A DNA stretch of 64,000 bases from an uncultured Clostridium sp. (GCA_905213875.1 CAJMJN010000001.1:59940-123939), one strand, 5' to 3'. Counted from the first letter of the stretch, positions 55,577 through 64,000 are shown. Program-made: numbers and translations. Notes: generated by a model from the sequence alone, not told the origin.

Positions 55577-55606
55577 TTGACAAAATTAATATCTAGGTTG
55601 TATAAT
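55577..55606 (+). promoter_or_regulatory. Consensus sigma-A promoter TTGACA-18-TATAAT that drives tRNA-fMet
   Basis: TTGACA at 55577-55582 and TATAAT at 55601-55606. The tRNA starts 17 nt downstream. Confidence 0.55.
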
Positions 55607-55622
55607 TAATTTGTTGAAACAT

Positions 55623-55698
55623 CGCGGGGTGGAGCAGTTGGCAGCTCGTCGGGCTCATAACCCGAAGGTCGTAAGTTCGAGTCTTACCCCCGCAACCA
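55623..55698 (+). tRNA. Initiator tRNA-fMet (anticodon CAU)
   Basis: CGCGGGG acceptor with a C1-A72 mismatch, three G-C pairs in the anticodon stem, loop CUCAUAA, T-arm, CCA encoded. Confidence 0.85.
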
Positions 55699-55699
55699 C

Positions 55700-55730
55700 A
55701 AAGTTTAAAAACAAACTTTTACTTTTGGGT
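55700..55730 (+). terminator. Terminator after the tRNA
   Basis: AAAGTTT-AAAAAC-AAACTTT followed by TACTTTT. Confidence 0.5.
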
Positions 55731-55865
55731 AGATGGTTTTGCAATATCTTGCAGTTTACCAGAAAAGTAATAAGTAGTGTAAAAATAAGTTAAATAATTA
55801 TTTATTTAGCTTATTTTTTTTTTGCGTAAAATATTATTAGAATAATATAATAGGAGGAATTAGAA

Positions 55866-56147
55866 ATGAAAGAGAAAATAGATAAAACAACAGCATTAAT
55901 AAGATTATTGGAACATAATGAAGCAATTAGCATAATAGGTAAGAATAATCAAAGGATTAATAGCTTAAAAGATTTAAAAGGAAATTTTAAAAATATTATT
56001 GATTTATCTTATTCAATAAACATACTTTTAGATAGTTCAAATATAGAAGGATTTGATTTCTTAATTATGACGGTTTCTGATATAACAAAAATAGAAGAAA
56101 CTTTGACTGATTTGTTAGAAAAGCTAAAGGTATCACAAAATTTATAA
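55866..56147 (+). CDS. Hypothetical protein (island)
   Basis: AGGAGGAAT ribosome-binding site. First gene after the tRNA. Confidence 0.5.
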   Translation: MKEKIDKTTALIRLLEHNEAISIIGKNNQRINSLKDLKGNFKNIIDLSYSINILLDSSNIEGFDFLIMTVSDITKIEETLTDLLEKLKVSQNL

Positions 56148-61458: not shown

Positions 61459-61660
61459 TTAGTAAATAGAAAAAAGTTCGCTTAAAATATTATAAAGCGA
61501 ACTTTTTGACTTGTGAAATTTAAAATATGGTTATAAAATTAAATTGCTACAATACTAAATATTTGTCTGCCATTATTACTAGCCCCTTATTAAATCTAGT
61601 AATACCTACAATACTAAAATGTATTGTAGCATTTATTATATATGAAAAAAAGGAATCAAA

Positions 61661-62479
61661 ATGAAAACAAATTTAGAAATGCTAGATAAGATAGTAAACT
61701 TAAATAACCCAAAGTTACTTATGATTTGTGGAAAAAACGATATTGAAAAAATATTTAATATAAATTTAGTATCAACAATTACTTTAGAGCAACAAAGTCC
61801 AACAGCTATATTCTATAATAAAAAAAATGAAAATTTAGAAGATACTACAAGCATACAGGATAAAATATTATCAAATTATTATCACATAGATATACAAGAA
61901 ATTAGTAATTATAGGTTAGCAGAAAGTTGTAACGTAAGAGAAAATTATAACTGGACACAAAACGAATATGTGTACTTAGATGGTGGAGATCTAAAACTAA
62001 AGATACCCAATAAAGAAAATCAAGATAAATTGAAATATAGATATGAAGAAATAGAAAAGTCAAATTTATATATTAATGCCATAGAAACAACTACATTAGA
62101 AGATTTAAAAACAAAATGCAGAAAGCTAAAACAAAAAAATGATGTAAAATTAATCATTATCAACGATTTAGAAATACTTAAGACTTACAATGTAATAGCT
62201 GTTAAAGAATTAAAACAGCTATCTATTGAACTTGGTATTGTAATAATAGTTAGTTCCCCTATCATATTAAATTTGGAAATACCATTAGAAAAACAGATAA
62301 GAGATACAGAAAAGATAGTAGAAAATAGCGATATAGTTATATATATGAATAAGCCAAATACCAAATTAGAAGAAATAATAAAAATAGTAATAGCAAAGAA
62401 CAATGGTGGAAAAACTGGAATTATTGAAGTCGCATATATTGATAAATACTGTAAGATTTGTAATTTGGCTAAGATATAA
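61661..62479 (+). CDS. DnaB-helicase C-terminal (RecA-fold) domain protein with a degenerate Walker A; lacks the DnaB N-terminal domain
   Basis: The C-terminal 120 aa align to the DnaB C-terminus (LIIINDLEIL...ELGIVIIVSSPIILNLE...DSDIVIYMNKP...IVIAKNNGGKTGIIEVAY). The Walker A position reads LLMICGKND. Confidence 0.5.
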   Translation: MKTNLEMLDKIVNLNNPKLLMICGKNDIEKIFNINLVSTITLEQQSPTAIFYNKKNENLEDTTSIQDKILSNYYHIDIQEISNYRLAESCNVRENYNWTQNEYVYLDGGDLKLKIPNKENQDKLKYRYEEIEKSNLYINAIETTTLEDLKTKCRKLKQKNDVKLIIINDLEILKTYNVIAVKELKQLSIELGIVIIVSSPIILNLEIPLEKQIRDTEKIVENSDIVIYMNKPNTKLEEIIKIVIAKNNGGKTGIIEVAYIDKYCKICNLAKI

Positions 62480-62499
62480 AATAAAAAAGGAGAAACTAA

Positions 62500-63366
62500 A
62501 TGAGTTGTTTTATAACGTGTAGAAGAATTGTCATAGGAAAAACAAAAAAGAAAGCACTAATAACAGTATGTAAAAATTGTAATGATTATGGAATACCACA
62601 TTTTAACTATATTTCAAAAAAATACGAAGTAACATTTAGCCTTTTATCTTCTGAATTCGTAGATACATTCGAAAATATAGAATTAGAAGATAGAACAGAT
62701 ACGGAAGAATTTTTGAATACAATAGTAGATATAACAGATGTGAAAAAAACAAATAGAACAATTAGAAAGTTAAATAAACAATTTTTTAGAAAACAAAAAA
62801 TAAGAAAAATAAAATATGCAAATATATATGAAACTCTAAATGAGGGCAATAAATATTTTGAAGTAGACATTGCAGATATTGAGCCAGATATGACATATTG
62901 GGAATTAATAGTAAAATTATGGAATAAAAATAACGAAGAAAAAACACCAACTAATTTACTAAAGCCATATTACAGAAATTTTATAGAATATATTGACACA
63001 GCAACTTTTGGACTTAAAAAACATTTAAACGGTGGAACGTGTTACACTAAACAAGACCAAGAAAGAACACCACATTTTATTTATAAAGTACCAACAGGAG
63101 AAGAATTTGCAATTTTATTTGAAAAGGCAGAATACTTACAACCAACACCAAGAAAACTAACACAAAAGGAATTAGATGTATTGGTAAAGTTTCTAAATAC
63201 AGAATATAAAATCCAAGAAGAAGTAGAAACTTATTGGCAGTCCGGTGTATGGTTATGGAATAACCAAAATTATGAGTATAACGAATATTCTCCAAAGTGG
63301 TTTCCAAAATATAAGAAAATAGCTGATAATGTGAAAATGCCTGATTATACCAAATTAAATAATTAA
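62500..63366 (+). CDS. Hypothetical protein with an N-terminal C4 zinc ribbon
   Basis: CFITCRR...CKNCNDY motif. AAGGAGAAA ribosome-binding site. Confidence 0.45.
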   Translation: MSCFITCRRIVIGKTKKKALITVCKNCNDYGIPHFNYISKKYEVTFSLLSSEFVDTFENIELEDRTDTEEFLNTIVDITDVKKTNRTIRKLNKQFFRKQKIRKIKYANIYETLNEGNKYFEVDIADIEPDMTYWELIVKLWNKNNEEKTPTNLLKPYYRNFIEYIDTATFGLKKHLNGGTCYTKQDQERTPHFIYKVPTGEEFAILFEKAEYLQPTPRKLTQKELDVLVKFLNTEYKIQEEVETYWQSGVWLWNNQNYEYNEYSPKWFPKYKKIADNVKMPDYTKLNN

Positions 63367-63457
63367 ATGAAAAATTACAGTAATGTAACTTTATTGTTTT
63401 AAAATAAAAACACGTTAAAATTGATTTTGGTACGTTGAAAAGTATTGAAAATCCATA

Positions 63458-64000
63458 TTAAGTATTGATTTTTATTTCATTTTTATATTTATAATATGTG
63501 TTACGTGAAATCCCTATTAATTTCAAACACTCTACATCAGACAAAACACCATTGAAGTCCTTAGAATATTTCTTGATTAAAGATTTAGATTCTAAGGATT
63601 TTTTTGTAGTTAATTTTGCCCCTTTAGGAGTTCCAATCCTTTTTCCAGCTAGTTTTGCAGTTTCTATTCCTTCACTGGTACGAATATGTAAATCTTCAAG
63701 TTCTTTTTGTGCTTGTTCAAAAACTTTACGAATTTGTTCTTTGGCTAAGGCTATTGTGTAATCATTTAATGCTTGAATAATAGCATTTATAAATTTATCA
63801 GTAGCTTGGTTTCCTGTTTGCACTTGAAGTTTTATTTGATTATCTAAAGCATTTTTAAAGACTTCCGTATTTATTTGTGGCTCTTTTAAAAATTCAATAC
63901 TAACATTATGCTTAAATAAATCTTCGTATAAATTACAACCACCCTCACTATTCCTGCTCATTCTACTAGCACTATCAAATACCAACTTATACTTTTTATT
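63458..64000 (-). CDS. Serine recombinase (resolvase/invertase family), partial; N-terminus lies beyond the window end
   Basis: The frame stays open to nt 64000. LVFDSASRMSRN resolvase catalytic-domain motif. C-terminal helix-turn-helix ISRNTYYKY. Confidence 0.7.
   Translation of the reverse strand, partial: NKKYKLVFDSASRMSRNSEGGCNLYEDLFKHNVSIEFLKEPQINTEVFKNALDNQIKLQVQTGNQATDKFINAIIQALNDYTIALAKEQIRKVFEQAQKELEDLHIRTSEGIETAKLAGKRIGTPKGAKLTTKKSLESKSLIKKYSKDFNGVLSDVECLKLIGISRNTYYKYKNEIKINT

Follow-up and report, generated by a model that had tools for sequence, protein, structure and literature searches.

The right end of the window, by which we mean the whole 64,000-nucleotide stretch of DNA from an uncultured Clostridium sp. 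analysed here, very probably contains the left 8.3 kb of an integrative mobile element that measures 14.8 kb and belongs to an undescribed family in uncultured human-gut Clostridia. The island is of an ordinary, integrative kind, yet its family has not been described before and carries an odd, uncharacterised gene pair. Comparison of empty-site contigs with the occupied site placed its limits at 55699-70535 (14,837 bp). A preliminary description of the region had given a size of at least 8 kb, with which this agrees, and had let the island end in a small serine recombinase, which it does not: the island runs on for 6.5 kb to a large serine integrase at attR. All sequence past 64000 comes from metagenome contigs outside the window. 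The contig that extends the island rightward, L001, is identical to the window (100%) over an overlap of 3,495 bp, and L009, which represents the occupied site, is 100% identical to it across 20.3 kb. The left boundary comprises the following features:

55577..55606, plus strand: host promoter of tRNA-fMet (TTGACA-18-TATAAT, 12/12)
55623..55698, plus strand: initiator tRNA-Met(CAT), whose 3′ end is the integration target and left half of attB
55692..55698: 7-bp core GCAACCA of attL, repeated at attR (composite 70529-70535; L001 10024-10030)
55699..64000: left 8.3 kb of the island, the rest lying on contig L001 up to composite coordinate 70535

The start coordinate of the preliminary description, 55577, is the start of the tRNA promoter. 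The GCAACCA core corresponds to the tRNA's own 3′ end (ACCA), and the island starts directly after the last tRNA base. At empty sites, the match to the window continues up to 55698 and resumes at composite position 70529 with a 7-bp overlap; according to this junction mapping, the insertion leaves the tRNA-fMet gene intact. The initiator hallmarks of the tRNA can be read from its sequence, namely the C1xA72 mismatch (5′-CGCGGGG ... CCCCGCA-ACCA-3′) and GGG/CCC in the anticodon stem. Empty sites were found in 14 of 16 same-species contexts (eight listed contigs and six similar places represented), and only a minority of strains carries the island. Since near-identical same-species contigs (99.2-99.9% flank identity) lack the whole segment, it is not a product of chance. 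Strain-variable presence with a precise junction, a terminal site-specific recombinase and short direct repeats on either side are features by which genomic islands are recognised, and the proposal of a strain-variable mobile island at the initiator tRNA was thereby borne out.

Near-identical copies of the element occur in other contexts, always immediately 3′ of a tRNA-fMet 3′-end sequence. Among the relatives, the ends and the left half share 97-100% nucleotide identity, and GCAACCA is followed by six different right flanks; the tRNA-fMet 3′-end sequence lies directly 5′ of the element in seven relatives, and 45-nt tRNA remnants lie beside four of these. Beyond the small recombinase, the island continues with a second HTH gene, a replication-type module, a 56-aa gene and the gene for the large serine integrase, which adjoins attR at the right end and whose reading frame spans the attR crossover site. 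The C-terminus of the integrase differs with the flank (503-565 aa among family copies). The protein has Resolvase and Recombinase domains (phrog_95 integrase, E=3.5e-89), to which Zn_ribbon_recom is added in the family copies L012 and L100-L107, and among NCBIfam models, CcrB matches the intact family integrase best, at E=3.3e-39, far below the cut-off. Compared with the intact 518-aa copy of L012, the integrase of the window's island has a 79-bp frameshifting deletion that removes LFCGNCKEPMTGTCGTSQTGIVYNYYIC, as seen in a single contig (L001). Because this deletion takes out the zinc-ribbon cysteines, the window's copy of the island is probably immobile and locked in. The attP site has an imperfect dyad symmetry (17/30 positions, including an 11-bp perfect run) centred on the GCA of the core; its junction, the excision product, was not found in JGI metagenomes or IMG/VR.

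The slot between the small recombinase and the integrase is filled by one of three alternative modules across the family. Module A, present in the window's island, encodes proteins of 662, 155 and 309 aa that matched nothing in Pfam, NCBIfam, PHROG or PDB sequences. A homologue with 25% identity to the 309-aa protein is encoded on plasmid pSMBb. The relatives carry either module B, with Zn_ribbon_DnaG/D5_N and a DUF5906 primase-helicase, or module C, with an HUH rolling-circle Rep (REP_ORF2-G2P). We infer a replication role of module A solely from its position, as modules B and C occupy the same slot.

The left part of the island consists of nine small same-strand genes 3′ of tRNA-fMet (55866 to 59389), preceded by a palindrome:

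55831..55848: 18-bp palindrome ATATTATTAGAATAATAT, just 5′ of the ribosome-binding site of the first island gene
55866..56147, plus strand: first gene of the array, 93-aa protein, no family match
56166..56372, plus strand: 68-aa protein, no family match, kept in relatives (71% identity in L013)
56500..56928, plus strand: 142-aa protein (142/147) with a C-terminal, zinc-ribbon-like CxxC...CxxC read from the translation
56972..57358, plus strand: 128-aa protein, putatively papain-like (Cys/His) according to the preliminary description, phrog_3754 (function unknown) as sole match, E=2.2e-26
57389..57694, plus strand: DUF3846 protein, Pfam E=4.9e-13
57765..58112, plus strand: 115-aa protein from gene calling, no family match
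58127..58291, plus strand: 54-aa (54/58) zinc-ribbon protein with CxxC...CxxC in the translation
58288..58776, plus strand: 162-aa DUF4314 protein, Pfam E=8.1e-25
58898..59389, plus strand: last gene of the array, 163-aa DUF6809-like protein, E=1.2e-5, just under the cut-off

The features listed in the preliminary description, including this array with its DUF3846 and DUF4314 proteins, were all present with small corrections. For the two small zinc-ribbon proteins, the motifs are found in the translations and the Pfam matches are weak. The palindrome looks like an operator because it is kept in distant relatives despite their diverged flanks. Between the tRNA promoter and the first island genes, no strong terminator-like site was found. 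The array genes include members of the PHROG families phrog_3754, 3777 and 3782, and the arrays of relatives also contain a Macro domain. Overall, the array resembles gene sets that serve conjugative elements and phages for establishment or anti-defence. A larger, apparently ICE-like element that encodes a tyrosine integrase and a sortase also has the DUF3846/DUF4314/DUF6809 set.

The array is followed by a regulator on the opposite strand, a membrane protein, the gene pair and the small recombinase:

59401..59769, minus strand: XRE-type HTH regulator, 122 aa (HTH_19, E=6e-13)
59938..61458, plus strand: membrane protein, 506 aa (SHOCT, one TM, OB-fold, beta-propeller)
61606..61629, plus strand: terminator-like hairpin between the membrane-protein and DnaB_C-like genes
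61661..62479, plus strand: DnaB_C-like protein, 272 aa (E=6.7e-16)
62500..63366, plus strand: 288-aa protein with two PHF-motif beta units, the C-terminal one DUF4160-like
63458..64000, minus strand: 3′ part of the small serine recombinase gene (full gene 63458-64183, 241 aa)

The XRE gene lies on the minus strand, as had been noted, divergent to the membrane-protein gene, and is replaced by a gene for an 83-aa HTH_26 protein in some relatives. The membrane protein has a cytoplasmic SHOCT helix pair, a TM helix (residues 40-63), a disordered linker and a predicted extracellular part composed of an OB-fold and a BamB/YxaL-like beta-propeller. The SHOCT match of the protein itself scores 22.4 bits against a cut-off of 27 bits, but PF09851 is found in many of its homologues. 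Between otherwise near-identical relatives, this gene is replaced or about 50% diverged, and it is the variable, swappable slot of the element family. The downstream genes had been described as a three-gene module. As the membrane-protein gene is swappable and separated by the hairpin, only the DnaB_C-like gene and the 288-aa gene behave as a unit. The small serine recombinase is of the resolvase/invertase type with a C-terminal HTH, and two 26-nt direct repeats upstream of its gene hint at a res site. It lies inside the island and was rejected as its integrase, a role that falls to the large serine integrase at attR. In the relative L097, the resolvase is internally deleted.

The DnaB_C-like protein consists of the C-terminal domain of DnaB only and scores far below the equivalog cut-offs. 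Its P-loop region (ICGKNDIEK) has no Lys that homologues conserve, and its Walker B (IINDLE) has Asn in place of Asp. We therefore rejected it as a DnaB replicative helicase, for which the N-terminal domain, the Walker A Lys and the Walker B Asp are missing. The earlier designation as a pseudo-ATPase is supported by these losses, and ATP hydrolysis by the canonical motifs appears to be ruled out. In some relatives (P0207, L013_265, L112_233), the DnaB_C partner has intact Walker A and B motifs, which are compatible with a role in replication and with one in conflict alike. The 288-aa protein, previously called a Zn-ribbon protein, retains one conserved CxxC plus a His; its first Cys pair is not conserved, and it is better described by its two PHF-motif units, which are accompanied by a helical linker. 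Its AF2 model has a pLDDT of 90 and found no match in PDB or BFVD with Foldseek. When aligned by hhalign, residues 177-288 matched stand-alone small PHFH-motif relatives with a probability of 99.6%; 19 of 76 such relatives match Pfam DUF4160 (best E=2.3e-6), whereas the window protein itself matches neither DUF4160 (PF13711) nor any other Pfam family at threshold. The two genes co-occur, are fused in three relatives (P0083, P0207, P0276) and remain unchanged while the replication module varies. The ratio dN/dS is 0.36-0.52 for the DnaB_C-like protein and 0.09-0.16 for the 288-aa protein, the latter indicating purifying selection. The pair is rare (163 representatives among 1.84 billion proteins), and no relative of the 288-aa family was detected in 2.9 million IMG/VR contigs.

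The nature of the island can be weighed against several other explanations. An ordinary conserved chromosome beside a tRNA gene, maintained as core synteny, would fit the G+C content of 24-28%, which does not differ from the rest of the window. It is refuted, and its probability is negligible, given the 14 of 16 same-species contexts that have a clean junction without the island, the same element in other flanks, and the related-species loci: island-specific genes were found at 0/80 of them, with only weak generic XRE and serine-recombinase matches. This comparison had been suggested as the refutation test for the claim that the island holds no core genes, and the claim withstood it. It is very unlikely that the island is a decayed remnant, i.e., a dead prophage or island fragment without current function whose genes are drifting. 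The 79-bp frameshifting deletion of the integrase in the window's lineage, the frameshifted neighbouring Fic gene and the internally deleted resolvase of L097 would agree with decay. However, the relatives' integrases are intact (503-565 aa), the ends are 97-100% identical in six flanks, which points to recent movement, phage structural gene remnants are absent, and most genes are under purifying selection, including the resolvase (dN/dS 0.03), the 288-aa protein and, strongly, the 128-aa protein (0.09). A phage satellite resembling PICIs, induced by a helper, replicating with its own primase or Rep, packaged into helper capsids and using some of its small genes to redirect packaging or to interfere, shares with the island the 14.8-kb size, the integrase at one end, two divergent HTH regulator/operon junctions, the lack of structural and conjugation genes, several array genes in the above PHROG families, and swappable replication modules, among them the D5_N/DUF5906 primase-helicase of module B. 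We nevertheless regard it as unlikely: Pfam and PHROG scans revealed no terS, capsid-morphogenesis, capsid-remodelling or other packaging gene by which a satellite could be recognised, in contrast to the layout of canonical PICIs, the integrase is of the serine and not the tyrosine type and is encoded at the end opposite to the regulators, the DUF3846/DUF4314/DUF6809 set is also found in the larger ICE-like element, the family, like its attP junction, is absent from IMG/VR, and no helper is known. An integrative mobile element remains our reading of the island as a whole.

For the pair, our best though tentative guess is a conflict module, in which a toxin-like effector of the DUF4160 type would have the helicase-derived protein as its sensor, regulator or neutraliser. 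In dhiTA, DUF4160 forms the toxin (PMC8198452), and in Menshen NsnC it is an effector domain; it has no known structural homologue (PMC12065111), which matches the lack of Foldseek hits for the 288-aa model. The likeness to DhiT/DhiA and NsnC lies in the C-terminal unit, which aligns with the PHFH-motif family; in contrast to DhiT/DhiA (DUF4160/DUF2442), the partner is derived from DnaB_C and not DUF2442, and the 288-aa protein differs from DUF4160 proteins by its two PHF-motif units, helical linker and CxxC-His motif; the second His of PHFH is not conserved. A more specific version is rather doubtful, namely a previously unrecognised two-component conflict system in which the pseudo-ATPase, by mimicking a helicase, would sense or titrate a replication factor of a phage or plasmid and keep a toxin-like effector of unknown fold under control, carried by a new family of replicative islands with an integrase targeting the ACCA end of the initiator tRNA. 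It is also somewhat unlikely that the pair is a replication accessory, with a helicase-derived loader or recruiter and a DNA-binding partner that bring the host replisome to the excised element or block the replication of a competitor. The homology to the DnaB C-terminal domain, the intact Walker motifs beside or fused with a 288-like protein and the presence of replication modules in all elements with the pair argue for such a role; the constancy of the pair across rolling-circle Rep, primase-helicase and unknown type, by which it is not tied to one mechanism, the window copy's predicted inability to hydrolyse ATP by canonical motifs and the relation of the C-terminal unit to a toxin/effector domain argue against it. 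The suggestion of a cargo or defence operon stays a hypothesis: a search of PADLOC-DB v2, covering the left half of the island except four small array genes, returned no system-specific match but generic HTH matches and a weak low-complexity match of the membrane protein to PD-T4-6 (18.6 bits).

Several features of the island resemble SCC elements of staphylococci such as SCCmec, which also use a large serine recombinase, CcrB being the best NCBIfam match of the family integrase, insert at the extreme 3′ end of a conserved housekeeping gene that is not inactivated, and combine a replication-type module and variable cargo with a lack of conjugation and capsid genes. SCC elements target rlmH and not tRNA-fMet, encode ccrAB instead of one integrase and a 56-aa gene, carry Cch/CcPol, to which the replication proteins of the island are unrelated by sequence search, and reside in staphylococci and not in an uncultured gut Clostridia lineage. 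Integrative mobilizable elements (IMEs) of Firmicutes, as defined in PMC5357655, are likewise small (5-18 kb class) with their own integrase and no T4SS; domain scans of the island genes revealed no T4SS-type domain, nor did Pfam and PHROG scans reveal phage structural, lysis or terminase genes as in a prophage. Moreover, IMEs exchange modules, occur in tandem with other small elements, as L012 adjoins Mob_Pre and a tyrosine integrase, and have relaxase modules related to rolling-circle initiators, of which the REP_ORF2-G2P HUH protein of variant C is reminiscent; neither a relaxase nor a coupling protein could be made out in the island of the window. The serine integrases of streptococcal IMEs are accompanied by canonical relaxases and almost always insert in protein-coding genes, which they disrupt (PMC5357655), whereas the integrase of the island targets the extreme 3′ end of a tRNA gene that stays intact.

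We propose that the integrase would recombine the tRNA 3′ end with attP and its GCA-centred imperfect dyad. After excision, the circle would replicate via its own module, and its multimers would be resolved by the small serine recombinase, assuming a resolvase function. Circularisation would join the integrase operon to the nine-gene array as one co-directional unit; in the chromosome, the array would follow the strong promoter of the tRNA. Between the XRE gene and the resolvase, the cargo consists of two separate things, a swappable surface protein and the coupled pair. For the spread between cells, our first guess is IME-like hitch-hiking on a conjugative element and our second guess satellite-like hitch-hiking on a phage; the route is a guess, as neither a relaxase, oriT or coupling protein nor a packaging gene was recognised in the window's island.

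Taken by itself, the island adds a further integrative element from an uncultured gut bacterium; three of its aspects are of some wider value. As a rare and repeatedly fused pair that is under purifying selection and has no structural match in the searched libraries, the two genes are a concrete candidate for a new module of conflict or replication control. Furthermore, the family provides a natural large serine integrase with an attB within about 45 nt of the highly conserved tRNA-fMet 3′ end. This integrase tolerates many right flanks. Such a target is unusual, as the serine integrases of similar elements mostly insert in protein-coding genes (PMC5357655), and the enzyme could be of use for integrating DNA into Clostridia in which genetic manipulation is difficult. 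Finally, the family shows cleanly how modules are exchanged in a lineage for which there is hardly any genetics: left halves and ends that are nearly identical are found together with three unrelated replication modules and with several genes for surface proteins.

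The island that begins behind the initiator tRNA gene could be followed past the window edge on a metagenome contig (L001) retrieved by an exact-protein look-up, which is 100% identical to the window across 3,495 bp and reaches 9.4 kb beyond the window end. The right half lies outside the window and is read here on L001 in composite coordinates, that is, window numbering carried past 64000. Using the neighbouring thioredoxin as the look-up query, we obtained ten same-species contexts. One island-bearing contig (L009) is 100% identical to the window across 20.3 kb, and eight contigs, standing for 14, are empty sites, none with the island, in which trx and tRNA-fMet are followed by a Fic gene, a 66-aa gene, comEA and a PBP5-type carboxypeptidase gene. 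Since BLAST matches of the empty sites to the window and L001 end at 55698 and restart at 70529 with a 7-bp overlap, GCAACCA, the island is 55699-70535 (14,837 bp) and its insertion leaves tRNA-fMet intact. The overlap corresponds to the final seven tRNA bases, and its second copy lies at the right end of the island. Extending the window, as the preliminary description had proposed, thus yielded both the other boundary (70535) and the repeat; the island does not end in the small serine recombinase at the window edge, as had been read there, and runs on to a large serine integrase at the right end (attR).

Features of the tRNA locus and the island (window numbering, composite coordinates beyond 64000)
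55577-55606: tRNA-fMet promoter, perfect sigma-70 consensus
55623-55698, plus strand: tRNA-Met(CAT), predicted by ARAGORN
59401-59769, minus strand: XRE gene
63458-64183, minus strand: small serine recombinase, full gene (241 aa), its 3' part in the window
64349-64870, minus strand: HTH_3 protein
Right half, module A: 662-, 155- and 309-aa proteins
Right half, before the integrase: 56-aa gene
69106-70544: large serine integrase, split into 312 + 168 aa, with Resolvase and Recombinase domains

The tRNA carries initiator hallmarks, namely a C1xA72 mismatch and an anticodon stem with three G:C pairs, and it was the sole RNA family found with Rfam. The XRE, SHOCT, DnaB_C-like, 288-aa and small recombinase genes previously listed for the window were all confirmed in place. 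The island is strain-variable, and its genes were correctly described as non-core: most same-species sites are empty, and island-specific genes occur at none of 80 related-species loci around a 360-aa neighbour gene, where only weak generic XRE and serine-recombinase matches were seen, so that there is no conserved core synteny. The part of the island inside the window has a G+C content no different from that of the remainder of the window. For the 360-aa neighbour, the top genome-collection match has just 78% identity; the close matches (58-82% identical) all come from MAGs of uncultured Clostridia, Bacillota or Eubacteriales, ‘Candidatus Merdicola’ included. Reference genomes seem to represent the host species poorly.

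Other changes were observed at this locus. In one same-species contig (L003), the tRNA-fMet region is replaced by an IS with a 332-aa rve transposase, the window match ends at 55572 and trx is joined to an inverted copy of window positions 45193-36336; tRNA-fMet was not found on this 20-kb locus, which looks like an IS-associated inversion. In a related species, a different insert of ~8.2 kb (L019 838-9101), sharing no genes with the island, lies between Fic and the tRNA-fMet 3' end, so that this tRNA end looks like a hotspot for insertions in more than one species. To the right of attR, the Fic-domain gene of L001 has a 1-nt insertion (G after CAAAAA, about 10354-10424, composite about 70860-70930), which in this one contig splits it into 136 + 113 aa as compared to the 229-aa allele of empty-site strains.

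Homologue look-ups revealed many relatives of the island in human-gut metagenomes. They have in common the left array, the DnaB_C-like and 288-aa genes, the small recombinase, the 56-aa gene and the integrase end, and both island ends are about 97-100% identical at the nucleotide level. The slot flanked by the small recombinase and the 56-aa gene holds one of three modules: module A (662/155/309 aa), carried by the window's island; module B, with a 198-aa protein, a 453-aa protein that weakly matches Zn_ribbon_DnaG and D5_N, and a DUF5906 protein of 247 aa; or module C, with a 307-318-aa REP_ORF2-G2P rolling-circle protein and companions. The regulator (XRE of 122 aa or HTH_26 of 83 aa) and the membrane-protein gene vary as well, and some relatives have a Macro-domain gene added to the array. 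Wherever the left junction of a relative is present, it adjoins tRNA-fMet 3'-end sequence, in one case from another tRNA allele; on the right, the same GCAACCA is continued by six different flanks. These junctions and flanks indicate site-specific, recent mobility and a recognition site situated mostly on the tRNA side. Four relatives adjoin 45-nt tRNA-fMet remnants, from the anticodon loop to ACCA, in non-tRNA contexts (L100 1688-1732, L101 2609-2653, L104 2513-2557, L106 11-55). Other tRNA-targeting elements probably left these behind as attachment sites, which this family then re-used as targets, giving tandem arrays; such arrays are visible, with adjoining tyrosine integrases and Mob_Pre. 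Relatives of the 288-aa family were absent from IMG/VR, and in a megablast comparison with GenBank phages and PLSDB plasmids the tRNA was the only match.

The integrase of L001 matches phrog_95 (E=3.5e-89) and is without Zn_ribbon_recom. Compared to the intact 518-aa integrase of the relative L012, it is missing 79 bp, with 99% nucleotide identity on both sides; the deletion, known from L001 only, removes the segment encoding LFCGNCKEPMTGTCGTSQTGIVYNYYIC with the first zinc-ribbon cysteine ligands and shifts the frame. Integrase length in the family depends on the flank, because the reading frame passes through the core into flanking DNA: integrated copies encode 503-565 aa, and 526 aa are predicted for the excised circle. 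The reconstructed attP, containing CAACTTGGGGCAACCACAAAGTTTAA, shows imperfect dyad symmetry about the core GCA, as is expected of a serine-integrase site. An exact search for the attP junction in JGI metagenomes and IMG/VR retrieved no circular form.

The three module A proteins have no matches in Pfam, NCBIfam, PHROGs or PDB sequences, and motifs in the 309-aa protein (RIDYCVD, LRLEIQ) give the impression of a Rep_trans-like protein. Its sole relative in the plasmid database (25% identity over 80% of the length) is a hypothetical protein of the 11-kb C. acetobutylicum plasmid pSMBb (NC_015688.1, 8089-9045), with a small recombinase gene nearby. Purifying selection on the small recombinase of the island is strong (dN/dS 0.03). 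The intergenic region upstream of its gene contains a pair of 26-nt direct repeats 73 bp apart (L001 3711-3736 and 3784-3809, composite about 64216-64314), which represent a candidate res site, which fits better than invertase sites; a Hin/Gin-type invertase was considered, and no convincing inverted repeats surround any segment. In one relative the recombinase gene carries an internal deletion (L097 8490-9077) and is therefore dispensable, at least when integrated.

Directly downstream of the tRNA lie nine closely spaced plus-strand genes. Pfam identified DUF3846 (E=4.9e-13) and DUF4314 (E=8.1e-25), with DUF6809 slightly under the cut-off, and two proteins have CxxC...CxxC motifs. A 128-aa protein matches only phrog_3754, to which no function is assigned; in database scans its proposed ‘papain-like’ identity had a Cys/His motif as sole support and was dropped. 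In the collection of papers searched, next to nothing was found on DUF3846 and DUF4314. DUF families of the array are also present in a larger element that encodes a sortase and a tyrosine integrase. The array may resemble the sets of establishment or anti-defence genes that conjugative elements carry. A perfect 8-2-8 palindrome, ATATTATTAGAATAATAT (55831-55848), immediately upstream of the RBS of the first island gene, is kept in the distant relatives L013, L014 and L099 despite differing surroundings and looks like a putative operator; no further copy, as would mark a regulon, was found in the window or in L001.

The preliminary description had joined the SHOCT membrane protein, the DnaB_C-like protein and the 288-aa protein into one three-gene module. 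This unit falls apart, as the membrane gene swaps and is set off by a 200-bp gap with a terminator-like hairpin (61606-61629), and only the other two genes are coupled. The 506-aa membrane protein, with a sub-threshold SHOCT match, is 50-57% identical or swapped out between islands that are otherwise near-identical; its position behaves as an exchangeable slot for surface proteins. Its homologues form at least 126 clusters, many from contigs of several hundred kb, with SHOCT or a zinc ribbon as N-terminal domain. In the AF2 model (pLDDT 84), cytoplasmic helices and a single TM helix are connected through a disordered linker to an OB-like barrel and a beta-propeller; Foldseek matches included BamB, YxaL and tetrathionate hydrolase, and SSB for the barrel.

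The DnaB_C-like and 288-aa genes are separated by 20 bp and co-occur in all members of the island family. In the 272-aa DnaB_C-like protein (E=6.7e-16), DnaB similarity is confined to residues 119-270 (PDB 2r6a, E=7.6e-11), the conserved P-loop lysine is absent and the Walker-B Asp is replaced by Asn. A word-indexed search found only six homologue clusters for it, and it evolves fairly fast (dN/dS 0.36-0.52), whereas the 288-aa protein is far more conserved (0.09-0.16). Three relatives are fusions of DnaB_C with a 288-like part: the Walker motifs are intact in P0207, P0083 keeps the Walker-B Asp but not the P-loop lysine, and both motifs are degenerate in P0276. Related elements also encode proteins that consist of a DnaB C-terminal domain alone and retain Walker A/B, beside or in place of degenerate copies (L013 10903-11700, L112 13792-14493), and L013 has a row of three DnaB_C paralogues. 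Repeated loss of the ATPase motifs appears to have taken place in this family.

The 288-aa protein had no family match in database scans, and its AF2 model, though confident (pLDDT 90), no Foldseek match in PDB or BFVD. Its alignment reveals two PHF-motif units. A CxxC-His is nearly invariant; conservation does not extend to the first Cys pair. A profile search found 163 relatives among 1.84 billion representatives, many of them stand-alone proteins of 120-160 aa equivalent to the C-terminal unit (hhalign to residues 177-288, probability 99.6%). DUF4160 was the only recurrent Pfam family, matched by 19 of 76 stand-alone relatives. DUF4160 is the toxin domain in the dhiTA toxin-antitoxin pair (PMC8198452) and an effector domain of Menshen NsnC, with no structural homologue known (PMC12065111). 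We tentatively favour, as a possible reading of these sequences, a conflict module in which a helicase mimic would control a DUF4160-type effector. That the pair, with its DnaB similarity, would instead serve as a replication accessory seems somewhat less likely. PADLOC gave no system-specific match for what had been proposed as a candidate defence operon, or among the other window island proteins scanned.

In the proposed life cycle, the integrase would carry out recombination between attP and the tRNA end, and the 56-aa protein might assist it as directionality factor. Once excised, the circle would replicate via module A, B or C, and the small recombinase would resolve multimers. In this circular form, attP would join the replication-integrase operon and the nine-gene array in the same direction; in the chromosome, the array would stand behind the tRNA promoter, with the native tRNA terminator hairpin displaced to attR. 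For transfer between cells, IME-like mobilisation is a real possibility, if somewhat short of an even one, with no relaxase found among the island's genes; satellite-like transfer is improbable, and no packaging genes of the PICI type were found among them.

The island is an integrative element in the generic sense and has the features of large-serine-integrase elements, and the defining tests for IMEs, PICIs, prophages and known defence systems were negative or leave the assignment open. SCC elements use a large serine recombinase, insert at the 3' end of a housekeeping gene and carry a replication module, and in these respects they are the closest analogue in logic. The serine integrases of streptococcal IMEs insert almost always within genes (PMC5357655), in contrast to the tRNA 3' end targeted here. 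Overall, the island is ordinary in kind, and the DnaB_C-like/288-aa gene pair is the sole part that could prove new.
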